64,000 nucleotides of DNA from an uncultured Thermoplasmata archaeon (GTDB lineage: Archaea; Thermoplasmatota; Thermoplasmata; Lutacidiplasmatales; UBA184): positions 410,500 to 474,499 of the forward strand of contig CAWDQO010000006.1 in NCBI GenBank assembly GCA_963804525.1, written 5' to 3'. The notes beneath the pieces were generated by a model. The model was given only the letters and a program-made list of their open reading frames with translations. It ran no database searches and had not been told where the DNA came from. The position numbers were made by a program, and so were the translations under genes. This document shows positions 41,503 through 64,000 of the stretch, in pieces; the stretch's first letter is position 1; every line of letters starts with the position of its first letter.

Positions 41503-42066
41503 ATGGGACGACGGCGGACCGGAGAGAGGAGCCTCCCGCGACTAAATACCACAAGGCCGTCGGACCTCCCGAGGGTCGCCGTGCGGGCCAATGTCGTCGT
41601 CTTCGGGGTCGCCCTCGTCCTCGTCGGCTTCGTGGTCTGGTACTTCCCCCTCACGACCGGGTCCACGTCGGCCCCGGTGCCGCGCGGGGACGCCTACGAT
41701 TACGGGCTTCCCGGAGCGCTTCTCATCGGCCCGATCCCGTACACCGCGAGCTGGACCGCGAGCGGCCCGGCGAACATCACCATCTACAGCTGCGGGACCG
41801 ACCCCGGCTGTCCGGACGGCCCGGACGCCCCGGTCGTCGCCTACTCCGACGAGGCGTCCGGATCGCTCAGTTGGACCAGCTCGGGCGGTCACTTCTTCCT
41901 CCTCGTTCCGGGTGCGCCGGTGAACGTGACCGTCACCTACATGGAGCCGATCGGCGGGGGCCTCGTCGGGATCGGGGTCCTCGGGTTCGGCGTCATCATC
42001 ACCGTGGCGGGACTCGCCATGCGCCGGCGGAGCCCGCCGTCGGCCCTCCCTGCCCCGCAGGATTGA
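41503..42066 (+). CDS. Hypothetical membrane-anchored protein (N- and C-terminal TM segments); start uncertain (ATG 41503 or GTG 41581)
   Basis: VVVFGVALVLVGFVVWYF ... extracellular segment ... LVGIGVLGFGVIITVAGLAM. Confidence 0.45.
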   Translation: MGRRRTGERSLPRLNTTRPSDLPRVAVRANVVVFGVALVLVGFVVWYFPLTTGSTSAPVPRGDAYDYGLPGALLIGPIPYTASWTASGPANITIYSCGTDPGCPDGPDAPVVAYSDEASGSLSWTSSGGHFFLLVPGAPVNVTVTYMEPIGGGLVGIGVLGFGVIITVAGLAMRRRSPPSALPAPQD

Positions 42067-42156
42067 CGCCGACCGCCGGATCCGGGGCGAGTCGGCGCGG
42101 GAAGTCTCGGGGCCGTGCGGTAGAGTCAAACACGGACCGGCGTCACGGTTTCCCCG

Positions 42157-43803
42157 ATGGGGACCGGTACCCGCTCGCTGGACGAACTCTGCGCGGAGCT
42201 CGGCGTTGCCCCCGATGAGGTCCGGACGGTCGGACGTGGGGTCGGGAAGCTCTCCGTCGCGATGATCCGGCGACGGGCCGCCTCCGCGCGGCGCGGTCGG
42301 ATCGTGCTGGTCACCGGGATGACCCCGACGTCCCACGGGGAGGGCAAGACGGTCACAACGATCGGGACGGCGATGGCCCTCCGACGGGCCGGGCACACGG
42401 TCGTTGCCGTCCTGCGACAGCCGTCGCTCGGCCCCGTGTTCGGCGTCAAGGGCGGGGCCACGGGCGGCGGGGCCGCGACGGTCGTCCCGGCCGAGCAGAT
42501 CAACCTCGGGTTCACGGGAGACCTCCACGCCGCGGCGGCGGCCCACAACCTCCTTGCGGCCCTCGTCAACAACCACCTCTACCACGGGAACGAGCTCCAG
42601 CTCGACCCGGAACGGGTCCGCTGGCCCTGGACGATGGACATCGAGGACCGGGTCCTCCGCCACGTCTCGGCGGAGAGCGGAGGGGTTCGCCGGACCGTCT
42701 CGCGGGAGGGGAAGTTCGTCATCACCGCCGCCTCCGAGGTGACCGCCGTCCTCGGCCTCTCGCGGGACTACGCGGACCTCAAGGACCGACTCGGCCGGAT
42801 CCTCGTCGGCGTCGACACGAGCGGCCACCCCGTCCGGGCGCGGGACCTCCACGCGGAGGGGGCGATGGCGGCGCTCCTGCGCGACGCGCTCGAGCCGAAC
42901 CTCGTCCAGTGCGCCGACGGGACTCCCGCCGTGATCCACGGAGGCCCGTTCGGGAACATCGCCCACGGGACCGCGAGCCGTCTCGCGATCGAGTTCGCCC
43001 TCTCCGCGGCGGAGTACTGCGTCGTCGAGGCCGGGTTCGCGACCGACCTCGGAGCGGAGAAGTTCGTCGACATCGTCGCCCGGCAGGCGAACCTCGCCGT
43101 GGACGCGGGATTGCTCGTCACGACCGTTCGGGGGCTCCGGCACCAGGGGGGCGTCGAGGAGGCCCGGCTCGCCGTCCCCGACCCGGCCGCCGTGACCCGC
43201 GGACTGGACAACCTCCGCGCCCACCTCGCGAACCTTCGCTCCCTGGGCGTGCCCGCGGTCGTCGTGCTCAACCGGTTTCCCGACGACGCCCCGGAGGAGG
43301 TCGCGCTCGTGGAGGCGACGGCCGCCGCCGAAAAGGCGGGGTTCGCCGCCTCGACGGTGTTCGCCGACGGGGCCGCGGGGGGTGCCGATGTGGCGGCCCG
43401 GGTGGTCGCGGTGGCCGCGTCCGGGGGTCGGAGCACCCCGCTCTATCCCGACGACAGCACGGTTCCGGACGCGCTCGACGTTCTCGTCCGCCGGCTCTAC
43501 GGGGGCGACGGGGCCGACTGGACCGACGAGGCGCGCCGTCAGCTCGACGACCTCACGAAGGCCGGCGAGGGGAGGGTCCCGATCTGTGTCGCGAAGACCG
43601 CGCTCTCGCTCTCCGACGATTCGCGCCGGCTCGGCCGCCCGACCGGCTACCGGGTCTCGGTGCGAAGGGTCGAGCGTTCGGCCGGGGCCGGGTTCACCGT
43701 GGTCTTCCTCGGGGAGATCGAGACGATGCCCGGCCTCCCGAAACGGCCGCTCGCCGAGCGGATCGACCTCCTCGCCGACGGCCGGATCACGGGCATGGGA
43801 TGA
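42157..43803 (+). CDS. fhs: Formate--tetrahydrofolate ligase
   Basis: TPTSHGEGKTVTTIG, LRQPSLGPVFGVKGGATGGG, GGPFGNIAHG, PICVAKT. Confidence 0.9.
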   Translation: MGTGTRSLDELCAELGVAPDEVRTVGRGVGKLSVAMIRRRAASARRGRIVLVTGMTPTSHGEGKTVTTIGTAMALRRAGHTVVAVLRQPSLGPVFGVKGGATGGGAATVVPAEQINLGFTGDLHAAAAAHNLLAALVNNHLYHGNELQLDPERVRWPWTMDIEDRVLRHVSAESGGVRRTVSREGKFVITAASEVTAVLGLSRDYADLKDRLGRILVGVDTSGHPVRARDLHAEGAMAALLRDALEPNLVQCADGTPAVIHGGPFGNIAHGTASRLAIEFALSAAEYCVVEAGFATDLGAEKFVDIVARQANLAVDAGLLVTTVRGLRHQGGVEEARLAVPDPAAVTRGLDNLRAHLANLRSLGVPAVVVLNRFPDDAPEEVALVEATAAAEKAGFAASTVFADGAAGGADVAARVVAVAASGGRSTPLYPDDSTVPDALDVLVRRLYGGDGADWTDEARRQLDDLTKAGEGRVPICVAKTALSLSDDSRRLGRPTGYRVSVRRVERSAGAGFTVVFLGEIETMPGLPKRPLAERIDLLADGRITGMG

Positions 43804-43873
43804 CCGGGAGGCCGGTGGGGCAGGCCCGAACGGCGCCGCGTCCGCGTCCCCCGGCGCTCTAAGTACACCGGCA

Positions 43874-45969
43874 ATGTGGGGGCGAGCGATGGCCCTCCCA
43901 CCCCGACGCCCCGTGGGCGCAGCCTGGGTGATCGCGCTCGTCGCCGTACTCGTCCTGACCGGCGCCTCCGCAGCGCCCGGTGGTCGGCTCCCGGCCGCGT
44001 CGGCCACGCTGTCCCCGATGTCCGCCGCCGACCGGATGGGACCCGCTCCGCCGGCGCCGCTCGTGGTTCCCTCGTCGGCCCACCCGTCGACGGCCACCCC
44101 GCTCTGGACGAACATCTCCTCCGGGTCGACGGACGCACCTCCCCCCGGGTCAGTGCGGGGATGGTCTACGATTCCTCCGACGGGTACGTTCTGCTGTTCG
44201 GCGGCGAACGCACGACCACCCCGCCGTACGTCTACTACAACGACACGTGGTCGTTCGTCGGCGGCGAGTGGACCAACCAGACCACCGGGCACGCCCCCTC
44301 GGCGCGGTTCGGATTCTTCCTTGCGGACGACCCCGCCGACCACGTGGTCGTCCTCTTCGGCGGCGAGCAGGGCACCCACGGCGTCCTCGAGAACGACACG
44401 TGGACCTACCACGCCGGAACCTGGACGAACGTCACCAGCGGAACGACGCCTCCGCGAGCGTTCTGGGGGTCGATGTCGTACGACTCGGCGACGGGAACCG
44501 TGCTCCTGTTCGGGGGGAACGAGGGCGGGGGCCCGACGACCGAGTACACGAACGACACGTGGTCGTTCCACGCGGGCGTCTGGACCGAGTTGTCCCCCGC
44601 GAGCACCCCGCCCGGGCGGGACGACCAGAACCAGGTCGACGACACGGCCACCGGTGACGTCGTGCTGTTCGGCGGATTGAACGCTACGGAGGACCTCAAC
44701 GATACGTGGACCTACTCCAACGGGACGTGGTCGCTGCTCGTCACCGCGACCGGCCCGGACGCCCGCGACGGACCGGGGATGGCCTACGACGCCGCCGAGA
44801 ACGCGGTGGTGATGTACGGGGGCTATCCGGCCAACGATTACTACTACGCAACGTGGGTCCTCGAGGCCGGGGTCTGGACCCAGTACGACGTCAGCCCCAC
44901 CCCCGCCGCCGGGACGATCTGGGGGCAGATGACCTACGACGCCGCGGACGGGTACGTCGTGCTCCTCCAGGGCAACGGGCAGTACAATTCGACGTGGGAG
45001 CTCAACTTCACCTCGAACACGACGGGTCCGCTTTCGCTCCAGGCGACCGCGATGCCCACGAGCGGAACGGCGCCGCTCCTCGTGACCTTCACCGCAACCC
45101 CCTCGGGAGGGACGCCGCCGTACGCGTACTCCTGGGTGTTGGGCGATGGCAACACGAGCGCGTCCCCGAACCCGACGCACACCTACGAGACCGCCTCCAT
45201 GTACACGGCCACGATCTACGTCACGGACTCGGCGTCGGGGAATGTGAGCAAGAGCTGGACGATCGTGGTGTCGGGTGCTTCCCCACCTCCTCCTCTCTCC
45301 CTCCAAGCGTCGGCCACCCCGACGACGGGGACGGCCCCGCTCGCGGTGGCGTTCACCGCGACCCCGTCCGGGGGGACGACGCCGTACGCCTACTCCTGGG
45401 TGTTCGGTGACGGCGGCCGGAGCACCTCCGCCAACCCGAGTCACACCTACGAGGCGGCGGCCTCGTACACCGCCACGATCTACGTCACGGACTCCGCATC
45501 GGGGAACGTGAGCAAGAGCTGGACGATCGTGGCCTCGTCGGCGCCGCTCGCGGCGACGATCGCGGCCGACCCGACCTCGACGACGGTCAACCACACGGTG
45601 GCCTTCTTCACGAACGTCACCGGCGGAACCGGCCCGTACACCTTCCTCTGGGAGTTCGCGGACCACACCTCGTCGTCGACGCAGGACCCGACGCACAGCT
45701 ACGGCGCCGCCGGTACGTTCGACGTCACCCTGACCGTCAACGACTCCGCCGGTGGGTCCGTGACCAAGAGCGTGACCGTCACGGTCGCGACTTCGCCGAA
45801 CTCCCCGCCCGCCTCGTCGTCCGGCCCGGCGAATGCGACCGCCATCGCCGCCGGCGTGGTTCTGATCATCGTGATCGTGTTCGTGGTGTTCTTCTGGTGG
45901 CGCCGGAAGAAGAAGACGCCCCCTCCGGGCTCCCCGGACCCCGCGGCGAGCCCCGGTCCTGCCCCCTGA
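43874..45969 (+). CDS. Secreted Kelch-repeat beta-propeller plus 3 PKD domains plus a C-terminal TM anchor; one frame shift at a C run near 44150
   Basis: The signal-like start MWGRAMALPP...ALVAVLVLTGASA is in the frame of ORF 43382..44680. ORF 43876..45969 then follows, with repeated YNDTWSF / NDTWTY Kelch motifs and PKD motifs (PYAYSWVLGDG, GPYTFLWEFAD). The anchor is IAAGVVLIIVIVFVVFFWW. Confidence 0.7.
45025..45545 (+). repeat. Intragenic tandem duplication (2 x about 270 bp) encoding two near-identical PKD domains
   Basis: 45195-45270 and 45465-45540 are nearly identical (ATCTACGTCACGGACTC...AGCAAGAGCTGGACGATCGTGG). Protein blocks TATIYVTDSASGNVSKSWTIV are repeated. Confidence 0.8.
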
Positions 45970-46169
45970 CGTCGCCGACGGTCCCGACCGTACGCCGTGC
46001 GACTCCTCGGGACACCCGGGACGCGACGCACGAAGCCGGGTCCCTCCCGGCCCGCTCCCAGTGGACGGACCCATCCGTGGAGGGAGGTCCGAGTCGCCTC
46101 CCGAGGCCCGAGACCCGCCCCGTGGGAGCGGACCGTAGCGTCTATCAAGGGGTCCCCGGTCCGACGGAC

Positions 46170-46754: not shown

Positions 46755-46779
46755 GGGACGGGCCCGCCGGGATTCGAAC
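46755..46779. repeat. 25-bp perfect copy of the tRNA-Arg 3' end (att-like remnant)
   Basis: GGGACGGGCCCGCCGGGATTCGAAC is identical to 48922-48946. It is followed by a 7-bp stem hairpin TTGCGCA-AGGA-TGCGCAA (46780-46797). Confidence 0.85.
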
Positions 46780-48523: not shown

Positions 48524-48925
48524 TTCCCCTCCTCCTCGGGCATCGCGCACGACCCGGGTTGGGCCCCGAAGGGCGGTGCCATCGGCAGGGGATGTCCGAG
48601 CGGGCGGGGTGGCAATCGGGGCGCGACATCTCCGCGAACTGCGCGCGGGCGGGAAGCGGGAAGGCGGCCTCTGCGAGACTGGGAACCCGCCCCGGTCGGC
48701 CGGGAGCCTGGGGCCCGACTGCCAGGTTTGGCCGGGTTTTCCGCACGGAGAGCGGTCTATCGAGAGAGCGCGTCGCGCAATGCTCCGATATCATGAGCTG
48801 GATCGTGCTCCACCGCGGCGAACACCTCACACATTTCCGGACGCCGAACTGGCGGGAGCGGAAGCGCACGGCGACCGCTAGACCTCGGCGGGGCCGGTGG
48901 TCTGGGTTCTGGAAGGGAAGTGGGA

Positions 48926-48999
48926 CGGGCCCGCCGGGATTCGAACCCGGGTTCGAGGCTCCGGAGGCCTCTGTGATGTCCAAGCTATACTACGGGCCC
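48926..48999 (-). tRNA. tRNA-Arg(CCG): tRNA-Arg (CCG), 74 nt
   Basis: Acceptor GGGCCCG/CGGGCCC, anticodon arm GAGGC-CTCCGGA-GCCTC, T arm CCGGG-TTCGAAT-CCCGG. The D stem as assembled is weak. Confidence 0.8.
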
Positions 49000-51050: not shown

Positions 51051-51215
51051 ATGCCGCCCGTCAGTCTCGAGGGGCCGAAGGATGAGGCCCGTCGGTCGCT
51101 ACCCGCTGGGCACCCCGGGCGCGAGGCGCTCCTCGCTCAACCGGACGCTCTCCCGGTGGACGAGTTCGACGCCCTCATCCCGGCGCTTATCCGGATTCTC
51201 AGGAGTCGACCGTGA
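51051..51215 (+). CDS. Small (54-aa) ORF translationally coupled to the primase gene
   Basis: ATG at 51051. ...LLAQPDALPVDEFDALIPALIRILRSRP. The stop TGA overlaps the primase GTG (GTGA). It falls below the ORF-track length cut-off. Confidence 0.25.
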   Translation: MPPVSLEGPKDEARRSLPAGHPGREALLAQPDALPVDEFDALIPALIRILRSRP

Positions 51216-53047
51216 CCGGCTTCGGAGTCGCACTGTGGGCGTCGCCCTGGTGTTTCGGCACCGAACTTCCTGAGATCTTCCGGCCGACGGAAATGACGAG
51301 CAGCACTCCGGCGCCAATCTTTGGGGCGGAACTCGCCGACAAGTTCGGGCTCGTGGCTGAGGAGTTGCTGTACGGACCACACGCTTCGGGGGTCGCCCTC
51401 TCGCGTAAGCTGAGCGACGGTCGAATCGCGTCGGAGAAGGGACGCCTCCTCGACGCGGGGCAACGACTTCGAGCCGACGGCCTCACGAGCGAGCAGGCGT
51501 ACGTCGCCGTTCGCGACCGAGAACTTCCCAACCCGGCCTCCACCCTCCTGTTGCTCCCGGCCGAGTTCCCGTCGGTACTTTGGGTGCCGACCCCCCAGGG
51601 CCCAGGGAGCGCGCGCCCGGCAGGATTCGTCGAACACCTTCTCGCGAAGTCCGTCTTCGCGGCCCCGACGGACACGTTCTCCGGGGCCGGATACGAGCTC
51701 CTTCGCTACGTGGATGGCGTCTACGTCGACGGGGCGAAGGCGTTCGTGCACGCCGAGACCGAGCGGGCCCACAAGAGCATCGGACGGACAGCGAGGGCGG
51801 GGTTCGCCGAGGAACTCGCAAAGGCAGTTGCCCGACGGTCGATGGTGGCCCGCGACCGACTAAATCCTCCGGGCCAGCTGAACCTCACGAATGGGGTGCT
51901 GAACGTCGATCGCGGGCTACTGACGCCCCATACCCCGGTGCTCCGTTTCACGCACAAGCTCCCGACGGCGTTCGACCCGTCAGCGGAGTGTCCTCGATTC
52001 ATCGAATTCCTAAGCGAGGTCCTTCCGGGAGACCTTCATCGCCGCGAAATCCAGAAACTCTTCGGCTACTGCTTCGTTCCCGGGAACCCGTACCAAGTCG
52101 GGCACCTCTTCGTAGGAGACGGCAACAACGGCAAGTCGACCGTGATCGGCGTCCTCACGGACCTCCTCGGCCCGGAGAACGTCGCGGCCGAGACCCTCCA
52201 AGCCCTCAACGAGAACAAGTTCTCGTCGGCGAAACTCTACGGGAAACTCCTCAACGCGTTCGCCGATCTCCCGAGCAATCCGCTCAAGCAGACCTCGACG
52301 TTCAAGACCCTCACCGGTGGCGACCAAGTCCGCGCGGAGCTCAAGTTCGGCGCGATTTTCTACTTCTACAACTCGGCGAAGTTGGTCTTCAGCGCGAATG
52401 ACCTCCCCGAGGTCAGCGAGCGAACGAAGGCGTTCTGGCGCCGTTGGCAACTCGTCCCATTCGAGCAGGACCTCACGGGGAGAGAGAACCGTCACCTCCG
52501 GGAGGATCTCCGCCTCGAGTCTTCGGGGATCTTGAACTGGTCCCTGGAGGGAGTCCGCTTGCTCCGGGCGGATGGTGGATTCGACCCACGCCTCGGCGGC
52601 GAGAGCGTGACCGCCGAATGGCGGCGGCGGAGCGACACGCTTGCCTGGTTCGTTGCCGAGTGTGTCGAACGGGACCCGGACGGCTACGTCCCGAAGGAGG
52701 ACTTCTACGAGGCCTACGTCGAATTCTCCGCCGCCAACCGCGCTTCAGCGAAGTCTCCGGAGGTCGTCGGAAAGGAGCTGGCTCGCCACCTACCTCAAGT
52801 CCGGACTCAGAAGCGTCGGCTGGAACCTGGTGGGCCGGAAGTGCGGGGATGGCGCGGAATCCGGCTTAAGTCGGAACACCCCGCCTCGCCTGCCTCACCC
52901 GCCTCAGCAGCACGACCTGAGGCAGGTGAGGCGAGTGAGGCAGGGTCCTCCCGACTAAGACTCAATGCCGACCCTGAGGACCTTCTGGCCGGAGTCGAAA
53001 CGCGCGGCGACCGAGCGCGTCGGGGTCTGGGGTCCGGCGGAACGTGA
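51212..53047 (+). CDS. Phage/plasmid primase-helicase (P4/D5 family, SF3 NTPase domain)
   Basis: GTG follows AGGAG. The sequence NLTNGVLNV...PRFIEFLSEVLPGD...LQKLFGYCF...FVGDGNNGKSTV...KLVFSANDLP...FWRRWQLVPF is the P4-family primase C-terminal / D5-like pattern. Confidence 0.8.
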   Translation: MTGFGVALWASPWCFGTELPEIFRPTEMTSSTPAPIFGAELADKFGLVAEELLYGPHASGVALSRKLSDGRIASEKGRLLDAGQRLRADGLTSEQAYVAVRDRELPNPASTLLLLPAEFPSVLWVPTPQGPGSARPAGFVEHLLAKSVFAAPTDTFSGAGYELLRYVDGVYVDGAKAFVHAETERAHKSIGRTARAGFAEELAKAVARRSMVARDRLNPPGQLNLTNGVLNVDRGLLTPHTPVLRFTHKLPTAFDPSAECPRFIEFLSEVLPGDLHRREIQKLFGYCFVPGNPYQVGHLFVGDGNNGKSTVIGVLTDLLGPENVAAETLQALNENKFSSAKLYGKLLNAFADLPSNPLKQTSTFKTLTGGDQVRAELKFGAIFYFYNSAKLVFSANDLPEVSERTKAFWRRWQLVPFEQDLTGRENRHLREDLRLESSGILNWSLEGVRLLRADGGFDPRLGGESVTAEWRRRSDTLAWFVAECVERDPDGYVPKEDFYEAYVEFSAANRASAKSPEVVGKELARHLPQVRTQKRRLEPGGPEVRGWRGIRLKSEHPASPASPASAARPEAGEASEAGSSRLRLNADPEDLLAGVETRGDRARRGLGSGGT

Positions 53048-53229
53048 CCGGTGCAACGGCCCAGCCGCCTTCGCCGGTGGCACCGGCGCTTCCGTTTGGC
53101 CGGCCCCAATGCCGTGCACCGCCTCCCCGAGCCCAGGTCGCCGAACGTTGCGCTCCACTTCCATCCGGGGCGTGGTCGGTACCTCTGCGACCAGTCGTAC
53201 GTCCATGGACGCCGCCGGCATTTCATCCG

Positions 53230-54044
53230 GGAGTCGTACGGCTCCGAGCGACGGCGCTGTTCGCTCCCGAGCTCCGGTCCGGCCTTGCGGAGGACGTTCT
53301 CCCCCGGCTCGATGGGGAATCGTTCGACCTGATCTATCTCGACCCCCCATACGGGACCACCTCCGCGGAGTGGGATCGAGTTCCAGACTGGAACTGGCTC
53401 GGCGACGAGACGGCGCGCCTACTTCGCCCGTCGGGCCAGGTCGTATTCCACGGCTCGGGCGCGATGGCCCTGGAGGCCGCGGCCACGTTCCTGGGGCACC
53501 TCGAGCATCGGTTCCAGATTGTTTGGGTGAAGGGCCGGACGGGCGGCCCCTTGCGGAGCTCCCCCTGGATCTCCGATTACGAGCCACTCCGGGCACACGA
53601 GATGATTCACGTCTTCAAGCGGAGGGGCGCGAGGACTGGCGACCTGACGTTCAACCTCGGGGCGATGCACCGCCGGGGCAAGCCCTGGCGCGGGATCAAG
53701 TGGCACGGCCCGACCCACCATGAGTCGTACGGGGAGGGGGCTCAGAGTACTCCTCGGACGGCTGGCGGTATCCGGTGGACGTGGTCTTCTCGTCCCCCTC
53801 GACCGAGGGAGACCTTTTCGCCGCCAAGCCCGAGGACCTCGTCACCCTCCTGCTCGCGACCCTCACCAAAGCCGGAGACCGCGTCCTGGACCCCTACGCG
53901 GGCTCCGGGACCACCCTGCGCGTTTGCCACAAGCTCGGGCGGCGGGCGCTCGGGATCGAGGCTTCGCCGCGGTCGTGGGCCATCCTGAGGCGGAACGTGG
54001 CCGGATTGAGGGGCTCCGCAAAGGGTCCGGGAGGCACTCGATGA
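53230..54044 (+). CDS. Island-encoded beta-class N6-adenine/N4-cytosine DNA methyltransferase with one frame shift near 53765; start approximate
   Basis: [11 protein letters not shown] (motif IV) is in ORF 53044..53988. AAKPEDLV...VLDPYAGSGTTLRV (motif I) is in ORF 53775..54044. Confidence 0.7.
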
Positions 54045-55066: not shown

Positions 55067-55733
55067 GCCGTGCGTCGCCCTCTACTTGCGCGTCTCCACT
55101 GAGGACCAGGACCTCGCCGGCCAGGACCGGGATCTGCGAGCGGAGGCAGCCCGCCGCGGCTGGGAGGTTGCCGAGGTCTACTCCGAGAAGGTCTCGGGGA
55201 CGGGGCGGGTCGAACGGGAAGAATACGACCGGCTGCTCCGGGACGCCACGCGGCCCAATCGGGGCTGGAGCATCCTCCTGGTCTGGGCCCTGGACCGCTG
55301 GAGCCGCGAGGAGCGGTTCGACCGCGCGGTGGGGTCAATCCTCGACTTGGAAAAGGCTGCGGTGAGTTTCCAAAGCCTGAAGGAACCATACCTGTCAACA
55401 CCCTCGACAGACGACGCCCACGCAGCGTTCGCCCGGAACCTGCTGCTGGGGGTCACGACCTCGGTCGCCGCCTTCGAGTCCCGGAGGAAGTCCGAACGGG
55501 TTCGGGTCGCCATGCGGGAGATTCGGGAGGGGCGGCGACCCACTCGCTCCGGGCGGCCCCCTGGACGCCCCCGGCGGGTTACACCGGAGAAAACTGGGCG
55601 GATCCTCGAGCTCCGCCGCCAGGGCCTCAAGTGGCGCGAGGTGGCGGGTCACGTAGGTCTCCCCGCGGGGACGTGCGCCTCGGTTTGGTCGAAGACCCAG
55701 CGGGCGTTGCCAAAGGTGGATTCCGGCGTTTGA
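55044..55733 (+). CDS. Serine recombinase (resolvase/invertase family) with a C-terminal HTH
   Basis: The internal ATG is at 55044. VALYLRVSTEDQDLAGQ (catalytic Ser motif), LLVWALDRWSR, and the C-terminal LELRRQGLKWREVAGHVGL. Confidence 0.8.
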   Translation: MTLSNLGKPCVALYLRVSTEDQDLAGQDRDLRAEAARRGWEVAEVYSEKVSGTGRVEREEYDRLLRDATRPNRGWSILLVWALDRWSREERFDRAVGSILDLEKAAVSFQSLKEPYLSTPSTDDAHAAFARNLLLGVTTSVAAFESRRKSERVRVAMREIREGRRPTRSGRPPGRPRRVTPEKTGRILELRRQGLKWREVAGHVGLPAGTCASVWSKTQRALPKVDSGV

Positions 55734-55803
55734 CCGGAGCCCTTCGCTCCCTGTCAGAGTAGGAAGGCCCCCCATAGGACGGCGGACGGGTAGGGCTCCC
55801 CCC

Positions 55804-56018
55804 GGATGTTACGGCTGGGGTGTCCCCGTTAGTCGATTTGCGCACGTTTTGGGCGATTCCTTGCACGGACCGGTCCGCGGAGTAGTCCCGGACGGACCCC
55901 CTTACCAGTCTCGGGGAGTGTAAAGGCCCCCTGAGGAAGGAGGACGGATCGGCCACAGTCCAGATGTTACGGCTGGGTAGTCCCCGTCAGAGAGTCCGTA
56001 CGCGAGTTGGGCGATTCT
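55804..56018. repeat. Two copies of a 57-bp module (55804-55860, 55962-56018), 158 bp apart, just downstream of the serine recombinase gene
   Basis: The conserved ends are GATGTTACGGCTGGG..GTCCCCGT and TTGGGCGATTC. About 40/57 positions are identical overall. Confidence 0.7.
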
Positions 56019-56413
56019 GATCACCCTGGACCGCGGAGCAGACCGGACCGGACTGTCGGATGGGGTCCGGAAGGAGTCCTCTCCCTACGGACGGGGGGCC
56101 GACCCGCGGTTTACGGCCGATTGCGTGACGCATGTTTCTGACGGCATGGCGCGCTCGGAAGTTCTACCGGTAAGATCGGACTGGTCTGCCCCACTTCGAA
56201 ATTTCCGATGCGTCCGTGTCGATTAGCCCCATTTGGCCGGAAATGGGGCGAGACCCGTGAAGGCTCTTGCCGATTACGAGCTCGGAGCTCCGGGGGCGGG
56301 GGTACAAACGCCCCGGACGCGGTTCGGTGACGGTTAGGGCGCGGTTCGACCGCGGTTAGGCTTGGGATCCTTGTGGGGAAATGATACACCAAGGGTAGGA
56401 TTGCGCCGACGGC

Positions 56414-56668
56414 ATGCACCTCCGAGCTTGGCGCCTGTTCCCAATGCTGCTCGGGTTCTTCGCTGGCGGGCTGATCCTGTCCGGTGTCGTGTTTGGGACC
56501 GGGCGGCTCGGAGACGGAGTCGGGGGAGCGAGCCAGAGCGTCTTGTCCGGGGTCGTTTTCGCGACGATGGGGGTAGCCGTGCTCGGCGTTGCGATTTGGC
56601 GGGCGTGGTGGAACCACCAAGTCCCGCGCGGGTCAGACCTCGAGGCCCAGCTCGACGGGCCACCTTGA
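56414..56668 (+). CDS. Small 2-3 TM membrane protein
   Basis: MHLRAWRLFPMLLGFFAGGLILSGVVFG...VVFATMGVAVLGVAIW, with good third-position G/C bias. Confidence 0.4.
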   Translation: MHLRAWRLFPMLLGFFAGGLILSGVVFGTGRLGDGVGGASQSVLSGVVFATMGVAVLGVAIWRAWWNHQVPRGSDLEAQLDGPP

Positions 56669-56718
56669 CGACCTCTTCGGGCCCCAGGACTCGATCCGAA
56701 CCCGATCTCGCTCTCGAC

Positions 56719-56949
56719 GTGCCGCTTTCAAGGAGGCTCCTGCGCTGGGACAGCCCCCTCTACCCTTGCTCGAGCTTGGCCCTCGCGTGGCTCCTCCTGG
56801 TCCAGTACATCTTCGGAGCCGACCGACTCTACGAGTATCTCGGGGCGTTTTGGGGTGGCGTTGGAATCGCGGCCTCGGTTGTCTACGGGCTGGGCTTCCG
56901 GTGGCGGTTCCAAGCGGCCAGTCGGGCGAGAGGTGGCCTGCGTCGGTAG
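56719..56949 (+). CDS. Small membrane protein (GTG start, uncertain)
   Basis: SSLALAWLLLVQYIF...GAFWGGVGIAASVVYGLGF, in the tail of ORF 56362..56949. Confidence 0.25.
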   Translation: MPLSRRLLRWDSPLYPCSSLALAWLLLVQYIFGADRLYEYLGAFWGGVGIAASVVYGLGFRWRFQAASRARGGLRR

Positions 56950-57087
56950 CGCGTCGTAGGCGGTCGGGTCTAGGTCCCACCTTTGAGAACTCCGACCTTT
57001 CGCAAGGGTCGGGCCGTCGGGCGTGTCAGGCTCGCTTGACAAGGGACCGGTTTCAAGAGCGCACGACTTCTGGCGGTTCGCCGGCCA

Positions 57088-57801
57088 ATGGTCGGCAGGA
57101 CCTTTCGAGTGGCAGCGAACTGCGTCTGGTGTCACCAGGGGGGCATGAAGGTCGGAAGTTTCTGCGAGCTCTGCGAGGCCCCGGATTGGGACTCGGAGCC
57201 CGACCTCAGAAGGTATATCGCGGAAACCGAGGAGTATCTCATCCTGGAGGAGCGGCACGTAGTGGGAGACGTGATCGTCCTTGAGCTCAGGCAACCCCCA
57301 CCTTTCGGGCAGACCGCAACACTCCGCTTGCCCTACAGGACGAGGAGCGACTACGTCCACATGAAGGGCACATCGTCTCTTGAGACCGGGAGAGGATGGT
57401 TGATCAAGTTCAGTCCCCCACCATCCGGAATGACGGCGTGGCGGGTCGCGAACTTTCGGCCAGGTCCCGAGCAATTCGAAATCCCCCTGGGCCGGACGAT
57501 TTGGGGGATTCCTATGCGGGCCCAATTCAACCCGCACCCGTCGTGGGAGCTGAAGTCAGGAATCGAGCGGTGCCAGAGGCACGCATGGGCTTTCCGGGCA
57601 GGGCGGGAGGCCTATGATATCAACGCATTCGCCGAGCGGATGCCCTGCACCTGCGGCCCGGGGTGCGACCTCTGCGAGATTGGGTTAAAGTTCGCCGAAG
57701 ACCGCCATAGACGGGGCAGCGACGGCACCAACTTCTGGACCGACCTGATGGCGACGGCGGCGCGGTGGGACGACATGATGCGCGAGCGCGCCCGGGCTTA
57801 G
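57088..57801 (+). CDS. Hypothetical protein with an N-terminal CxxC...CxxC zinc-ribbon and a C-terminal Cys cluster
   Basis: Intact 237-aa ORF with CVWCHQGGMKVGSFCELC and CTCGPGCDLC. No family was recognised. Confidence 0.5.
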   Translation: MVGRTFRVAANCVWCHQGGMKVGSFCELCEAPDWDSEPDLRRYIAETEEYLILEERHVVGDVIVLELRQPPPFGQTATLRLPYRTRSDYVHMKGTSSLETGRGWLIKFSPPPSGMTAWRVANFRPGPEQFEIPLGRTIWGIPMRAQFNPHPSWELKSGIERCQRHAWAFRAGREAYDINAFAERMPCTCGPGCDLCEIGLKFAEDRHRRGSDGTNFWTDLMATAARWDDMMRERARA

Positions 57802-57887
57802 GGCGCGGTTCGGAACCAACCCACTGTCGAACATCCTCTGACGGCGTGCGATGGTGAGCGCCTCTCCCACGTCTCATCAAATTGGCT

Positions 57888-59448
57888 CTAGGAGCTTGTC
57901 TCCCTACACCGATCGCATCGACGTGAGCGCTCACTCACTGTGAGCCGGCCTTCCGCCCGCCTCCGCGGAAGTCGCCTCAGCCGAGCCGCGCCCGATGGAT
58001 CTTTCGCAGATTGTGCGCGAGGCACCCGAGGAACCACTCGCCCCGGACCTTCCGATGTCCTCGGAGGAGGAACTGGCGGAACCGCTGCGCCTCTTTCATC
58101 TGTCCGAACACCGACTCCACGATCGCCTTCCGTCTCCGATAGTGGGTTCGCCCTCGCCGACCCCGGATCCCTCTCCGCCTCGCCGCGGCGAACGTCTCCC
58201 CGTTCGGCGGACGACCCCGCCGACACCGCTCGCGCTCCTCCCTCTTCCCGCGCCCCGGAGGACAGGACACCTCGACCCCTCGTCCCTCCACCGCTCGGAT
58301 CCCAGCCTCGCTGAAGTACCCTGAATCGGCGAGCAGCTTCTCGGGGCGCCGGCCCAGCTGTGCCACGATCGAATCGAGCATCGGCACGAGGTGACGTTGG
58401 TCGGGGGCCGCTGTCATCACCTCGGCCCCGACGATAATCTGGTGCGCCTCGTCCACCGCCGCCTGACAGTTGTAGCCCTGGAGGAACGCTCCCTTGTTTC
58501 CTCCGTCCGGGATGATGCGCGACTCCGGGTCCGTGAAGTTCCGCTGAGCCTTGGCATCCACCGAGGGAGGGGGAGACCCTCCGCCTTCCTTCGGCGGCTC
58601 GGTTCCGCCGGACCTCTCCGATTCGGTACCGGTGTCCACGATGACTCTGCCTCGAGCCTCTTCCTTGAGGGCGAGCTTCGCCGCTCGAATCTTCGCCAGC
58701 CGGTCGCGATGGAACTTCAGCTCCTCCGGAAGATCCTTCGGGCGCTTCCCGTGGCCATACTCGGCGTCCTCTTCGAGGTCGACCTTCCGAGCCTCGGCGA
58801 AGAGCTGGCGCACCTTGCTCTGGAGCTCCCGCTCCCGCACGAGCATCCGCCCGTAGCTCATCGCTTTATGTTTGGAGGCGTGGGCTCGGACCTTCGTCCC
58901 GTCGATTGCCACGCGTCCCATCTTGACGAGCCCGAGCCGCTCGGCGACCTTCAGCCCCTGGATGAACAGCCCCTCGAGGACGTCGAGGTTCCGCTCCCGG
59001 AACCTCGCGATGGTGTTGTGGTCCGGGTGCTGGTTCGCGGCGAGGTAGCGGAAGGCGACGTCCTCGAAGGTGGCGCGCTCGATCTTGCGGGAGGAGCGCA
59101 CACCGATGGCGTAGCCATAGACGAGGAGCTTGGTGAGCATCCTGGGGTGGAGCGCCGGGTGGCCGCCCTCGGCGTTGCGGTATCGCTCGAGGAGCGGGGT
59201 GAGATCGAGCGACTCCTCGACGACCTCGGAGATGAAGCGGGCGAGATGATCCTCCGGAAGCCAGTCCTCCAGATTGGGCGGGAGAAGGAGGCTCTGCTTC
59301 GGGTCGTAGCGGGTGAAGACCGGCGCATGCTCGTCCTCGGGAGGCATGCGACCGGGGAACGGCTCCCCGGATTTATGTACGCCGGTCCATCAGCGGGAAT
59401 CCCACCAATTTAATCGAGGCACCAGGCCGTAGTGAGACAAGCTCCTAG
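57888..59448. mobile_element. IS1182-family insertion sequence (1561 bp) with 20-bp terminal inverted repeats
   Basis: The left IR CTAGGAGCTTGTCTCCCTAC (57888-57907) matches the reverse complement of 59429-59448 at 19/20 positions. It encloses the transposase ORF. No clear target duplication was seen. Confidence 0.8.
57977..59347 (-). CDS. IS1182-family (IS5-superfamily) DDE transposase, intact
   Basis: MPPEDEHAPVFTRYDPKQSLLLPPNLEDWLPEDHLARFI (the DUF772-type N-terminus), VAIDGTKV, LLADSGYFS, ESVFGQMK. Confidence 0.85.
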   Translation of the reverse strand: MPPEDEHAPVFTRYDPKQSLLLPPNLEDWLPEDHLARFISEVVEESLDLTPLLERYRNAEGGHPALHPRMLTKLLVYGYAIGVRSSRKIERATFEDVAFRYLAANQHPDHNTIARFRERNLDVLEGLFIQGLKVAERLGLVKMGRVAIDGTKVRAHASKHKAMSYGRMLVRERELQSKVRQLFAEARKVDLEEDAEYGHGKRPKDLPEELKFHRDRLAKIRAAKLALKEEARGRVIVDTGTESERSGGTEPPKEGGGSPPPSVDAKAQRNFTDPESRIIPDGGNKGAFLQGYNCQAAVDEAHQIIVGAEVMTAAPDQRHLVPMLDSIVAQLGRRPEKLLADSGYFSEAGIRAVEGRGVEVSCPPGRGKREERERCRRGRPPNGETFAAARRRGIRGRRGRTHYRRRKAIVESVFGQMKEAQRFRQFLLRGHRKVRGEWFLGCLAHNLRKIHRARLG

Positions 59449-59506
59449 GACAGGACGTTCCTCCCCCCGAAGGGAGCCTTAAGGCGCGCCGGGAATCAGG
59501 TCCATC

Positions 59507-61021
59507 ATGCCTGAAGCCGTTGGCGCCGGCTGGACGGCCCACCTGAATTCGACTTACCGCGGGTTGTCTGCGGACAGAAAAGGGATCGAAGTCAGACCCC
59601 TAACCGTGATTTTGGGACCCAACAACGGGGGCAAATCGCAATTCCTCCGTTCGATGGTGCTTCTCGCAGCCTGCAAGAGACTGCTTTCGCCCGATGAGCG
59701 CGGATACCCCCTCCCTCTGCGGGGCTCGCTTGCCCAAAACCTAGCAGACATGGGGTTTCAGGACCTCGCCGAAGAACTGCCTGATCTGATTGGCCCCGAC
59801 CGGCCGATTCAGCTCGTGTGGCGGGCGCCATTTCAGGATGGGCGGACTTTCGGTCAAGCCCTGGCGGATGCTTCTGAGGAGATGCGCCGGCCCATGCACC
59901 GAGAGCGCTCCCGCGACATTCAAGACGGGCTGCCCCCGGTGGAATACCGCCTGGTTCTCTCATACGATTCGTCGACGAAAGAGATCCTCGTCCGCTCGTG
60001 CGTTGTTAGGGGGCTCTGGGAGGGACTGGAACTGCGGATCCAGTCGAAAGAGGTCAAGGGCGTTGAGTCCCGGCAACCGAAAGCAGACTGGGAGTTCGAC
60101 TTGCGGGCGCCCCCCTTCCCGGATTTTGTTACAAAGTTTCGGTACCGGGGACGGACCTACGACCACAGAGCAATCGTCGAGAATGCCTTGCGAAGGAGTG
60201 AGGGCAGGATTCACCAGGTGCTGTCGCAGCGATGGAGCCGGAACTGGGGTCTCAGGATACTAGTTCGGCTCGCCTTTTCGCGTCTTCCCTCAGTTATTTA
60301 CCTTGGCCCGATCAGAGTAAGGGACGACCGAACTTACTCGGTGGCGTCAAGTCAGGATACAGACGTCGTTGGTCGACTCGGGGAATTCACTTGGGTCCTC
60401 TTGCGTGAGCTCGAGCGCGGCAATCCGGCTCGGCGGCAGTGGTTGGAGGAACGAATCGAGCAGGTCACCGGACTAAGCAATGTGCGCGGTGATCGAGATA
60501 GTCCAACCGTCCCTCGAGTCATGGCGCGAATTGGTAAGGGCAGATCGTTCGCACTCCACAACTTTGGACTCGGAACCTCTCAGGCACTACCCATACTGGT
60601 CCAACTGGCCGCAACGTTACCCCTTCACCCCCAACGGGCGGTACCGCGGCGAGTGCGGAATCCTAGGTTCGTGGTCGTCGAAGAGCCTGAGACTCACCTT
60701 CACCCAGCCGCGCAGAAATCCCTCGCCCAGGCGATGGCCTCGTACGTCGCGGCTGGAGGGCGAGTTGTAGTTGAGACTCACTCGGAGGTATTCGTCCGCG
60801 CGATTGAAACCGCCATTTCCAAACAGTCCTTAGCACCCCATCTCGCAGGAGTCAACTGGGTTCAGCTCTCCGGTGATCGGAAGAGTAAGTACTGGGGCGT
60901 CAGATTCCACGACTTTGATGAGACGGGAGCGCTGGCGGGCGGGATTCCCGCGACCTTCGATGAAATCGTCCCCTCGCTGATTGAAGAACGCCTCATCTCA
61001 AGTCGACGAACTCGCAAATGA
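59507..61021 (+). CDS. ABC/AAA_21-type ATPase with a DUF3696-like C-terminus
   Basis: Walker A GPNNGGKS, then FVVVEEPETHLHPAAQ and VVVETHSEVF. It is paralogous in motif layout to the ATPase at 3583..4624. Confidence 0.75.
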   Translation: MPEAVGAGWTAHLNSTYRGLSADRKGIEVRPLTVILGPNNGGKSQFLRSMVLLAACKRLLSPDERGYPLPLRGSLAQNLADMGFQDLAEELPDLIGPDRPIQLVWRAPFQDGRTFGQALADASEEMRRPMHRERSRDIQDGLPPVEYRLVLSYDSSTKEILVRSCVVRGLWEGLELRIQSKEVKGVESRQPKADWEFDLRAPPFPDFVTKFRYRGRTYDHRAIVENALRRSEGRIHQVLSQRWSRNWGLRILVRLAFSRLPSVIYLGPIRVRDDRTYSVASSQDTDVVGRLGEFTWVLLRELERGNPARRQWLEERIEQVTGLSNVRGDRDSPTVPRVMARIGKGRSFALHNFGLGTSQALPILVQLAATLPLHPQRAVPRRVRNPRFVVVEEPETHLHPAAQKSLAQAMASYVAAGGRVVVETHSEVFVRAIETAISKQSLAPHLAGVNWVQLSGDRKSKYWGVRFHDFDETGALAGGIPATFDEIVPSLIEERLISSRRTRK

Positions 61022-61509
61022 TTCATGTCGTAGACACCGGGGTACTTGTGGGCCTTCCCGGCGATGCGATGGATATTCTCGCGAAGGTTCGCCAGAGTGA
61101 GGACGACAAGCTTGCCTCCGATCACCCTGACGGCCCCTGTTTTGGGGAGATTCAGCGACATTGCGAGTCGCCCCTCGTGCAAGGATGTCCCGTCCCGTGG
61201 CGTGGCCCTCCGAGCAATCCAATTAGCAAAGACGTTCGACGAGTGTTGATGCCCATGCTAGGCCGCGCCGAGAAGGTTGCGTTGGTGGCCTCGCACGACG
61301 GCGAGCCTGCGGGCGCGCTTGCCGACGAGCTGTTGGTCGCGGTTCGAGAGCTGGACTTGGATGCTTGGTGGGAGAAGGATCGGAAGTGGGTCTCGCTGGC
61401 GCAACGCGTTGGAGTCGCAAGAATCACATCGACCGACCGCGGTTTTCGGCGAGTAAAGAAGATATTGAAGAAACACGAGATTGCCGTTGTTTACATCGCT
61501 CCGACTTAG
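61018..61509 (+). CDS. PIN-like domain protein (weak assignment)
   Basis: The ATG overlaps the ATPase stop (ATGA). The N-terminal MIHVVDTGVLV and C-terminal ARITSTDRGFRRV resemble the first and last acidic motifs of PIN nucleases. The central part is unrecognised. Confidence 0.4.
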   Translation: MIHVVDTGVLVGLPGDAMDILAKVRQSEDDKLASDHPDGPCFGEIQRHCESPLVQGCPVPWRGPPSNPISKDVRRVLMPMLGRAEKVALVASHDGEPAGALADELLVAVRELDLDAWWEKDRKWVSLAQRVGVARITSTDRGFRRVKKILKKHEIAVVYIAPT

Positions 61510-61534
61510 CCCCCACCCCCGAGTTCCCAGAGAT

Positions 61535-61837
61535 ATGCCTGAGACATACGCCCGCTGGCTGATTGAACCCTTAGGGCTCCCTTGGGGGCTAAGCTCGCCG
61601 TTCGGGGCACATTGCGTCGACTTCCGAGCCAAGATTACGCCGGATCGGAACCCGCCGGGGGGTGCACCCGCACACGTCGCGTCTGGAGAGCTGCCGAATT
61701 CGGCCTGTCCGAGGGCCGGACGATGGATTCTCACGGTGATCGAGGGCGACGCGGCACCTCTCACCTTTCAGCGCGTCCCAAACACGGAAGGCTTTAGCCT
61801 CGGATTGAACGTTGCGGTCGCGAGGCGACGACCGTGA
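61535..61837 (+). CDS. Hypothetical 100-aa protein coupled to the downstream methyltransferase
   Basis: ATG at 61535 lies inside ORF 61481..61837. The stop overlaps the MTase GTG (GTGA at 61834-61837). Confidence 0.35.
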
Positions 61838-63618
61838 GCAACCTTCCGAACATGCTCTACTTCGGCGACAACCTCGAACTCCTCCGTAACCGTGATCACT
61901 TCCCGGACTCCTCGGTGGACTTGATCTATCTCGACCCGCCCTTCAATTCGAACCAGGACTACAACGTCTTGTTTGCCGAGAAGAACGGAACTCAATCGGC
62001 GGCTCAAATCCAGGCCTTTTCCGACACGTGGCACTGGGACGTGGCCGCGTCCGCGGCCCTGAGCGATGCCGTGAGCAACGGGGGCCCCCGGGTGGCCTCG
62101 GCGATGAAGGCATTCCAGACACTCGTCGGCGGGAGCGACATGCTCGCCTACCTCTCGATGATGGCTCCCCGGCTCGTGGAGTTGAGACGAGTTCTCAAGC
62201 CGACTGGCTCGATCTATCTCCACTGCGACACAACGGCAAGCCACTACCTGAAAATCCTTATGGACGCCACTTTCGGTGCCCGAAACTTCCGGACCGAGAT
62301 CGCGTGGAAGCGCCAAAGCGCCCACAACGACGCCAGGCAGGGTCGAAAGCAACACGGACGTATCCACGACGTCATCCTGTTCTACACCGCGAGCGAGGAG
62401 TGGACGTGGAATTCGGTGTACGTCCCTTATGACGAGAAACAGCTCGAGACGAACTACCGTTGGGCCGAACTCCCGAACGGAAAGCTCGTTCATCTGAAGA
62501 AGGGTGAGGAAGCTCCGTCGGGCGCGCGACTCTGTTCTATGGGCGATCTGACCGGGCCCGGGGGGGTCGCGAGGGGAAGCCCGGAGTATGACCTATTGGG
62601 AGTCACGCGAGCCTGGCGCTTCTCCAAGGACAAGATGGACGAACTCGTCAGGCAAGGTCGGGTCGTTCAGACTGCACCGGGAAACGTACCCATGCAGAAG
62701 CGCTACCTCGACGAAATGCCCGGGGTAGTGGTCCAGGACATCTGGACGGACCTAAAACCGATTGCCGCTCAAGCGGCCGAGCGCCTCGGATACCCCACCC
62801 AGAAACCTGCGGCGTTACTCGAACGAATCATCCAGGGAAGCAGCAACCCCGGCGATACCGTCCTCGATCCGTTCTGTGGATGCGGAACGACCGTCGCGGC
62901 GGCTCAGAAGCTCGGCCGCCGATGGATCGGAATTGACGTCACGTACCTCGCGATTGGCCTCGTGGAGCGCAGGATGAAGGATACCTTCGGACCTGAAGTG
63001 GCGGGAAACTGGAAGGTCGTCGGCGAGCCTCGGACTGTCGCCGACGCTGGGGAACTTGCCCGACGAGACCGTTATCAGTTCCAGTGGTGGGCCCTCGACC
63101 GGGTCGACGCCCGCCCAAAGGAGAGCACTCGAAAGAAGGGGGCGGATCAGGGCGTGGACGGAATCATCAATTTCCAGGAGTCGCCAGGAGGGGCGGTCCG
63201 CACCGTCTTACTTCAGGTCAAATCCGGCCAGGTCCATCGCGACGATGTCGCGACGCTCAAGGGTGACATGGAGCGAGAGGACGCCGAAATCGGCGTCCTG
63301 CTCTCTCTCGAAGAACCTACCGAGCCGATGAGGAAGGAGGCGGCCGGCGCGGGTGTGTTCCAAGCCGAAGACCCCATCGGGGCTGGACGACCGACGTACC
63401 CACGAGTCCAGCTGCTGACCGTCAAGGAAATCCTCGAGGGAGGGAAGAGTGTGGAATACCCCAAGCAGGGCAACGTCACCTTCAAGAGGGCCCCGGTCGC
63501 CCCCCCGAAAGCCAGGGGCCGAATCAAGAAGCTGAGCTTACCTGGTTTCGCAGGGCAAGGGGTCCTGCGGGCCGAGGGGGACGACTCCGGCCACGATTCG
63601 GTGGAGCCCGAACAGTAG
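61834..63618 (+). CDS. Beta-class N6/N4 DNA methyltransferase fused to a C-terminal Mrr-like restriction-endonuclease domain
   Basis: The MTase part has [12 protein letters not shown] (motif IV), YPTQKP and [11 protein letters not shown] (motif I). The PD-(D/E)xK Mrr_cat-like part is the C-terminal [11 protein letters not shown]...VLLQVKSG. Confidence 0.75.
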
Positions 63619-63857
63619 GCGAGGCCCATTCTGGTTCCTCAGCCGGGGTGCCCCGGGCCGCGAACTAGGATTCGCCCCGTGCTTAGACCGAATCCGCTCG
63701 GGGGTGACTAATCCACGCTCAGGCTACCCGTCTTCCGACCTCCGCCAAATATTCGCCGCACCCGATGTGGGGCGTCCAGGAAGCACGCTGCTGCCTTCGC
63801 GGTTGGCATGTCGGCTTGCGGGCCTAGGATGTAATACCGGGGCCCCGTGTTGCGATC

Positions 63858-64000
63858 GTGTCTTGCGACCTGGAAGAGGAGGACATCGACGTCCTCTACT
63901 GGTTCTTCCAGAAGCACCTGCTTAGCCCAAAGGCAAGCCTGCATCAGGACGCGGTCTACGCCCGCCTGTCCGGAAAGATTCGCGACCCGGAAGCGGTCAT
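63858..64000 (+). CDS. 5' part of an unidentified ORF running off the window
   Basis: The frame is open from the stop at 63831, with a possible GTG at 63858. VSCDLEEEDIDVLYWFFQKHLLSPKASLHQDAVYARLSGKIRDPEAV shows coding-like codon bias. Confidence 0.25.
   Translation, partial: MSCDLEEEDIDVLYWFFQKHLLSPKASLHQDAVYARLSGKIRDPEAV

Follow-up and report, generated by a model that had tools for sequence, protein, structure and literature searches.

Four open reading frames (ORFs) on the same strand are packed so tightly at positions 59507 to 63618 of a 64,000-nucleotide (nt) stretch of archaeal DNA (the window; contig CAWDQO010000006.1 of assembly GCA_963804525.1, positions 410,500 to 474,499) that the locus raises a simple question: are they one system? 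They were described as an ABC ATPase, a small PIN-like protein, a 100-codon ORF (here ORF3) and a DNA methyltransferase fused to an Mrr-like endonuclease domain (the methylase::Mrr fusion) (Table 1). An earlier note, made from the sequence alone, took all four for a single co-translated cassette of an unnamed type, possibly a restriction-modification (R-M) module with an ATPase/nuclease arm. The packing is as that note described it: ATGA and GTGA overlaps are present at 61018-61021 and 61834-61837, and 25 nt (61510-61534) separate the PIN-like protein from ORF3. Nevertheless, the proposed four-gene cassette is two unrelated units, neighbors on a mobile element of an archaeon. Unit 1 (59465-61588) is the ATPase-PIN pair and Unit 2 (61834-63618) is the methylase::Mrr fusion.

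Table 1. Features of the locus and of the element that carries it (positions in the window; aa, amino acids)
Feature	Position	Strand	Remarks
tRNA-Arg(CCG)	48926-48999		
P4-family primase/helicase, then weak N6_N4 methylase-like ORF	51212-53988		D5_N, DUF5906, primase_Cterm 3e-60
IS1182-family insertion sequence	57888..59448	-	transposase NF033551, 353 bits, cutoff 270 (NCBIfam equivalog)
Left inverted-repeat arm, 20 nt, CCCCGAAGGGAGCCTTAAGG	59465..59484	.	22 nt upstream of ATPase start codon
ABC ATPase, 504 aa	59507..61021	+	NsnB/PtuA-like (OLD-ABC) kind
PIN-like partner, 163 aa	61018..61509	+	predicted nuclease effector; start codon overlaps ATPase stop (ATGA)
Right inverted-repeat arm, 20 nt	61569..61588	.	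60 nt past partner stop codon, inside ORF3
ORF3, 100 codons	61535 (or 61481)..61837	+	probably not a gene
N6A/N4C methyltransferase::Mrr fusion, 594 aa	61834..63618	+	independent gene

The conserved unit is the ATPase plus the 163-aa partner, not the four ORFs. A search with the ATPase gave four relatives with 36-59% identity (loci L001-L004), each followed directly by an ORF of 160-172 aa, and these downstream ORFs align with the partner at 34-52% identity. A profile search added a further instance, represented by two short contigs (L006 and L007) and a 40-kb contig, all with the same neighbors. The pair is coupled at six other independent loci, seven counting the window, and the genes around it are unrelated: ETF genes at L003, a polyprenyl synthase and a class-I tRNA synthetase on the 40-kb contig, and an island with a prokaryotic Argonaute (pAgo) at L001. 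The ATGA overlap of the window recurs unchanged in L001 and L002. Thus, of the co-translation proposed for the whole set, the part that concerns the ATPase and its partner stands, but it cannot be extended to all four ORFs, since ORF3 is at chance level (see below). At L001 (324-11490), a pair 43% identical to that of the window is located between a short pAgo with its partner and a methyl-directed restriction endonuclease (REase). PADLOC profiles identified pAgo_I (1e-123) with an SLFN/AlbA_2-type partner, the methyl-directed REase (3e-52) and a RelA/SpoT-like PDC-S33; this locus is a clear defense island. More distant relatives of the ATPase (P0006, P0014 and P0016; about 450 aa) have a downstream partner of 176-181 aa and no DUF262 gene. 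Wherever flanks were available, none of these other pair loci had a methylase::Mrr gene or an ORF3-like sequence.

The methylase::Mrr fusion has a different distribution. That one protein combines a methyltransferase with an Mrr-like endonuclease domain was borne out by Pfam (N6_N4_Mtase, 3.6e-43; NA-iREase1, 7.7e-9; Mrr_cat, 6.6e-7): the methyltransferase is of the beta class and the C-terminal part is an Mrr-type PD-(D/E)xK domain. Among species-representative genomes there were 423 full-length relatives in which both domains were matched, with 47-59% identity, in Thermoplasmata, Chloroflexota, Acidobacteriota, Poribacteria and others; relatives were also found on rhizobial plasmids, and with these included the full-length identities span 44-59%. 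We retrieved 80 of these loci and surveyed 6 kb around the gene. None had a homolog of the ATPase, the partner or ORF3 within that distance, and clustering of the neighboring ORFs revealed no conserved partner. The bacterial plasmid homologs, which are annotated simply as DNA methyltransferase, are solitary as well. Along its full length the window protein resembles the solitary Mrr_cat-fused beta-class methyltransferases ("site-specific DNA-methyltransferase"), from which it differs in nothing notable. The fusion is a common, solitary and ordinary member of its family, independent of the pair. The motifs DPPF, FxGxG, GxDxGxDG and QVKSG are conserved in at least 95% of 81 sequences, and so the nuclease-like domain is under selection; that fused domain is absent from every characterised or solved homolog. 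Methyltransferase motifs and a nuclease catalytic motif (QxK) occur within one polypeptide, as in a single-chain R-M enzyme (Type IIG/IIC-like). The fusion would methylate the DNA of the element or of the host; a further role in restriction or addiction, as a single-chain enzyme, is possible.

These two surveys bear directly on the idea that the four ORFs are one operon-level system, in which the methylase::Mrr fusion supplies R-M and the ATPase/PIN pair (with ORF3) is a dependent sensing or abortive arm. We consider this very unlikely. The earlier note had tied its claim to co-conservation of the four genes elsewhere, and no such co-conservation was found: 0 of the 79 other methylase::Mrr loci had such a module or any conserved neighbor, and the methylase was missing from the six other ATPase-PIN loci wherever their flanks could be inspected. 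In addition, ORF3 is unconserved and looks noncoding, and an inverted repeat delimits the pair apart from the methylase (both discussed below). The idea draws its strength from the facts that the two units share a strand, that no more than 324 nt and no clear terminator separate them, and that methylases are frequent companions of related systems. HEC-03 (Hma-embedded candidate 03), which consists of an ABC ATPase and a VapC-like PIN protein, is one of the HEC systems that were found embedded in methylase-containing Hma loci (Payne et al. 2024, 10.1101/2024.01.29.577857), and 27.9% of Menshen operons adjoin R-M systems or methylases.

One locus also speaks for such a link. In a Thermoplasmata metagenome-assembled genome (MAG; DASYYY010000021.1, locus L011, 3869-7767), an unrelated, HEC-03-like pair is located directly upstream of the orthologous fusion. 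Its ATPase matches DUF3696, NsnB (3e-57) and HEC-03B (1.8e-44), its 165-aa partner matches HEC-03A (3.6e-6) and PIN_3 (0.02), and the resolvase of the L011 element is 67% identical to that of the window. However, the L011 module is in divergent orientation to the fusion, which argues against a common operon. The presence of two different ATPase-PIN modules beside the fusion in related elements suggests that the site is a hotspot for cargo or that module and fusion have some loose affinity in function; it does not amount to a fixed set of four genes.

The 324-nt spacer between the two units contains ORF3, which had been counted as the third gene of the cassette. Its G+C contents at the three codon positions (0.65/0.59/0.67) are flat compared to those of real genes (about 0.66/0.45/0.70), and chance ORFs of 100-240 codons are frequent in the noncoding frames of this G+C-rich DNA. 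ORF3 had no match in Pfam, PADLOC or NCBIfam, and among about 90 related loci its only homolog was in L005, a near-identical 288-kb ENA contig that matches the window at 99.4% over 59456-64000 and at 99.3% over 57030-57889. It was not called as a gene in L005, and its exact sequence is missing from the protein collection. The spacer had no match in Rfam, its RNA folding was no better than that of shuffled sequences, and what it shares with the methylase locus of L011 is limited to the 18 nt that directly precede the GTG, the ribosome-binding site region. Judged by its composition and lack of conservation, ORF3 is most likely spacer DNA and not a gene, and because spurious ORFs are common here, the GTGA overlap is most likely coincidental. 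A role for ORF3 as a regulator or antitoxin was ruled out by the same lack of conservation and of a coding signal.

Unit 1 is defined also by the DNA around it. The two arms of the inverted repeat pair at 18 of 20 positions and bracket the ATPase-PIN pair exactly. The repeat occurs in just two copies in the window, and 0 of 2000 shuffles of both flanks reached 18/20. Through the left arm, a TTAA comes to lie about 28 nt ahead of the ATG, which is the position expected for the archaeal TATA box of a leaderless mRNA. The arms may be the termini of a cassette that was inserted here, sites at which the serine recombinase of the element acts, or a pair of promoter/operator elements. That they are a repeated mobile-element end was ruled out by a metagenome scan for the repeat sequence, which gave 22 single, unrelated matches, none of them near an ATPase-PIN pair. 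No comparable inverted repeat was found around the homologous pairs of other loci, where any repeats were weak or short (14 nt at best, in L089), and so the repeat is not demonstrable as a trait of the family.

The IS1182 copy that had been noticed beside the cassette was confirmed by its transposase (Table 1) and by terminal inverted repeats of 20 nt (57888-57907 and 59429-59448) that are 95% complementary. Its end and the downstream ATPase start are 58 nt apart, and 17 nt separate it from the left inverted-repeat arm. Because the copy is missing from L005 (compare 9941-9951), which is otherwise about 99% identical, the insertion is recent.

The ATPase is NsnB/PtuA-like. It matches AAA_21 (8e-18) and AAA_15 (2e-15) in Pfam; among PADLOC profiles NsnB is the best match (6e-32), followed by PDC-M55A (2e-27) and then AriA, with HEC-03B (1e-12) further down. 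It has a Walker A motif, GPNNGGKS (residues 37-44), a signature-like GLGTSQ (354-359), a Walker B region, VVVEEPETHLHP (388-400), an H-loop, ETHS (423-426), and a divergent DUF3696-like C-terminal tail with G474, P481 and F484. In an alignment of 23 sequences, Walker A (GPNNGGKS), the GxGxSQ signature, Walker B (EEPETHLHP) and the ETHS H-loop are invariant. Also invariant are an arginine (R270/R275), which we assume stands for the Q motif as has been reported for NsnB, and a C-terminal "G...P..F" that aligns with the WPxxF of DUF3696-bearing relatives. The earlier assignment to an AAA_21-type ATPase was therefore sound, but its DUF3696 component was not reproduced as such: the aligned "P..F" of an equivalent, divergent tail is present, yet the Pfam DUF3696 family itself gives no match to the protein. 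The AlphaFold2 model has a predicted template modeling score (pTM) of 0.84. Its closest Foldseek match is PtuA of Septu and retron complexes (E value, 9e-8; probability, 1.0), and the next matches are SMC/Rad50 heads and GajA. Its viral matches were limited to two, both weak and partial.

The 163-aa partner is probably PIN-like and a catalytic nuclease, a fold assignment that is supported by predicted topology and motifs and not by statistics; to that extent the claim of a small PIN-like protein translationally coupled to an ABC/AAA_21 ATPase was correct. The AlphaFold2 model (mean predicted local distance difference test score [pLDDT], 90.7; pTM, 0.87) has the order b1-a1-a2-b2-a3-loop-a4-b3-a5-a6-b4-a7-b5, which is the order of the PIN domain, a five-stranded parallel alpha/beta/alpha fold. 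Four acidic residues occupy the canonical PIN acidic positions and are invariant or at least 90% conserved in an alignment of 12 sequences (A3): D6 ends strand b1, E44 is part of a3, D121 is located where the "DRKWVSLAQ" helix begins, and D140 follows b4 within "S/T-x-D-x-x-F". The D-19-D spacing and the pattern "D..W.SLAQ ... S/T-x-D-x-x-F" are typical of PIN domains. Near the top of the Foldseek matches are PIN-type proteins, namely, ExoIX, a VapC (probability, 0.75), the PIN domain of Rrp44, and a second VapC (template modeling [TM] score, 0.49/0.56); viral NYN and PhoH proteins were further matches.

The partner family is rare. A search with the single 163-aa sequence found nothing, and homologs surfaced only as neighbors of the ATPase. 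Of 1.84 billion cluster representatives, 11 belong to the family, and no member was found in 185,579 species genomes, a scan of JGI metagenome contigs, IMG/VR, or plasmids; a search with the family profile gave no usable match in PDB sequences, Pfam or PADLOC. Frameshifting indels at 10001-12400 of L005, which are probably long-read errors, truncate the ATPase, partner and methylase calls there to 328, 86 and 299 aa. Because these L005 calls are truncated, the family is nearly invisible in protein databases.

An alternative is that the 163-aa protein has no catalytic activity and serves as an adaptor, as does the inactive PIN-like (inPIN) domain of the Menshen protein NsnC, and that the effector is elsewhere, for example, in the neighboring Mrr-type domain. 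All 35 NsnC PIN-like families lack catalytic residues and have been proposed to be binding modules, and two DUF3696 tails of NsnB are predicted to clamp the inPIN domain, which is N-terminal in NsnC (PMC12065111). The weakness of the fold matches to active PINs is in keeping with an adaptor. Unlike inPINs, however, the partner conserves the four acidic positions. It is a single-domain protein with no C-terminal effector or extra domain, and at the six other loci the pair is alone, with no additional nuclease domain or gene. We therefore give the adaptor explanation little credence and regard the partner as a probable nuclease.

How does the pair compare to known systems? The nearest in architecture is HEC-03, which protects Escherichia coli against phages, requires both genes, and is toxic upon induction (10.1101/2024.01.29.577857). 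Both consist of two adjacent, co-oriented genes, for an ABC ATPase and a stand-alone PIN protein of about 160 aa, and HEC-03 also has been found beside methylase-containing systems. But the HEC-03 profile matches the window ATPase only partially (1e-12, residues 348-441), the N-terminal half of that ATPase (Insert-1) is unrelated and about 50 aa longer, and the partner has no match to the HEC-03 PIN profile even at an E value of 10. The host of the window system is an archaeon, and the true HEC-03-like pair of L011 clearly belongs to another family.

The second comparison is with Menshen (Millman 2022; Li et al. 2025, PMC12065111), in which NsnB has a GxG signature, an arginine in place of the Q motif, and a DUF3696 tail (PMC12065111). 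The window ATPase, for which NsnB is the best profile, has the GxG-type signature, the conserved arginine and a divergent DUF3696-like tail, to which the Pfam family gives no match, and the downstream partner begins with a PIN-like domain. In contrast, the gene for NsnA (with ParB-DUF262 and ParBDB domains), which in Menshen directly precedes that of the ATPase, was absent from all loci checked: there was no DUF262 protein in the window, where IS1182 and a 237-aa ORF are upstream, or in L001-L004, L006, L088 and L089. Unlike NsnC, the partner has a single domain, lacks a C-terminal effector of the nuclease/toxin type, and keeps the acidic tetrad that inPINs have lost. The pair is not Menshen, having neither NsnA nor an effector domain.

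Septu (PtuAB), PARIS (AriAB) and Gabija (GajAB) likewise combine an OLD-ABC-type ATPase with a small nuclease, and PtuA is the closest solved structure, but all three were ruled out because the type of partner is wrong. The window partner is not an HNH protein (PtuB) or a DUF4435/Toprim protein (AriB), and Gabija consists of a Toprim fused in GajA plus the UvrD helicase GajB, whereas the window ATPase has no fused Toprim in Pfam. The partner resembles VapC-type PIN toxins in size, in the order of strands and helices, and in its D-E-D-D positions, and VapC structures are among its top fold matches. It differs from them in that there is no VapB-type antitoxin, that neither sequence nor Foldseek comparison gives a significant match, and that a loop insertion of 23 residues (48-70) is present and H93 is invariant. 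The pair is a rare, divergent and unannotated version of a known ATPase + PIN-nuclease antiviral module. The statement that the combination matches no named system thus needs correction, since an ABC ATPase with a PIN protein is the validated HEC-03 architecture and the best defense profile of the ATPase is NsnB of Menshen.

Given which genes are conserved together, which motifs and predicted folds they have, and that one pair is located in a defense island, and by analogy with these systems, we favor, with somewhat better than even confidence, the view that the pair is an ATPase-restrained PIN nuclease that would be released on infection and would arrest the cell or degrade viral RNA, the methylase::Mrr fusion being separate cargo. 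The pair would work like HEC-03, Septu, PARIS and the NsnB-NsnC core of Menshen. An oligomer of the ATPase would keep the nuclease partner inactive, probably via the C-terminal DUF3696-like tails. An infection cue would then alter ATP binding or hydrolysis, and the PIN nuclease would be set free or activated. The nuclease would cut RNA, most likely tRNA or mRNA, and virus production would stop at the expense of host growth. The complex of ATPase and nuclease, the trigger, the RNA target and the defense phenotype are all putative.

Several points weigh against this view. The best Foldseek matches of the partner have E values of 0.05-0.08 and TM scores of 0.4-0.56, and none is significant; the protein has no match in Pfam or PADLOC, nor in NCBIfam; and when the partner family was compared by hhalign to the HEC-03-like L011 partner, the probability was 2%. 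The presumed clustering of the four acidic residues was deduced from their positions in the sequence. The recent IS1182 insertion may have cut the module off from its native promoter, so that the module may be silent here. With both units on the same strand and no obvious terminator, they may be co-transcribed, and the different ATPase + PIN module beside the same fusion in L011 leaves room for some functional or regulatory link with the methylase.

The same architecture could serve the element and not the host, if the pair were a toxin-antitoxin (TA)-like addiction module in which the ATPase restrains a VapC-like toxin and which mainly stabilizes the integrated element. The setting would suit such a module, with an integrase, a primase, a resolvase and an insertion sequence (IS) nearby. 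AAA_21 is the family of the AbiEii/type IV TA ATPases, HEC-03 is toxic when induced, and bacterial homologs of the neighboring methylase are found among plasmid TA and partition genes. The other pair loci point elsewhere: some homologous pairs are located between housekeeping genes and lack markers of mobile elements, and one is in the pAgo/REase defense island. Moreover, HEC-03, the closest characterised architecture, protects against phages. We judge addiction to be an unlikely primary role and prefer defense by a restrained nuclease.

Both units are carried by what appears to be an integrated element linked to tRNA-Arg, and, taken together with the proposed mechanism, we think it rather probable that they are independent cargo of that element. 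Following the tRNA are a weakly XerA-like integrase ORF, the P4-type primase, the second methylase-like ORF, and a serine recombinase (resolvase). As had been noticed, the cassette (59.5-63 kb) has a lower G+C content (0.59-0.62) than the DNA further to the left (0.65-0.75). A 15-nt repeat of the 5' end of tRNA-Arg (window 48985-48999) is present at 16559-16573 of L005, just before the core genes for S27e, Spt4 and Rpb7 that follow the island there. This repeat fits a candidate right-hand attachment (att) site, in which case the element would be about 17 kb long and end about 2 kb past the window. The integrated-island reading of the earlier note is thus plausible, given the integrase, primase and resolvase near the tRNA and the tRNA repeat in L005. 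S27e, Spt4 and Rpb7 identify the host as an archaeon; as the closest relatives of the methylase and the resolvase are in Thermoplasmata MAGs, it is probably a member of the Thermoplasmata.

We made some further observations in this region. The second, weak N6_N4 methylase-like ORF (53044-53988) has a 59%-identical homolog near the methylase::Mrr gene of another locus, L012. The segment between the resolvase and the 237-aa ORF is wholly different in the window (55695-57030; 1.3 kb) and in L005 (6313-9080; 2.8 kb), and this interval is a second variable slot of the element. At 2.1 kb to the left of the tRNA, 25 nt from the 3' part of tRNA-Arg are repeated directly and without mismatch (46755-46779 and 48922-48946); the copy resembles an att site, here for another integrated element, small or decayed, on the far side of the tRNA. 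A 1510-aa ORF without a Pfam domain (41542-46074, minus strand) is located just left of the tRNA-Arg region.

A more far-reaching scenario, which we put forward as a long shot, would join several of these threads. The 2.1-kb repeat-bracketed pair might be an exchangeable defense cassette, either transposable or invertible by the recombinase, that docks by the methylase::Mrr genes of Thermoplasmata elements. Methylation, or the Mrr-type reader, would set self and nonself, and the ATPase would read this state and unleash the PIN RNase, making the arrangement an archaeal counterpart of the "embedded" systems. The pair with an active PIN might then represent the ancestral core of Menshen, which would later have gained NsnA and a new effector while its PIN domain was inactivated.

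For the reading of genomes from sequence alone, the locus is a caution: tight same-strand packing within an island did not, in this case, signify one system, and it was co-conservation analysis that split the two units and removed a spurious ORF. At such loci the most that a PADLOC-type search would report is an orphan "NsnB." The characterised share of archaeal immunity is small. The pair extends the HEC-03/Menshen type of ATPase-nuclease logic to a mobile element of the Thermoplasmata, and with its retained acidic tetrad, the PIN partner may bridge the two-gene ATPase-PIN systems and the three-gene Menshen, in which the PIN domain is inactive.

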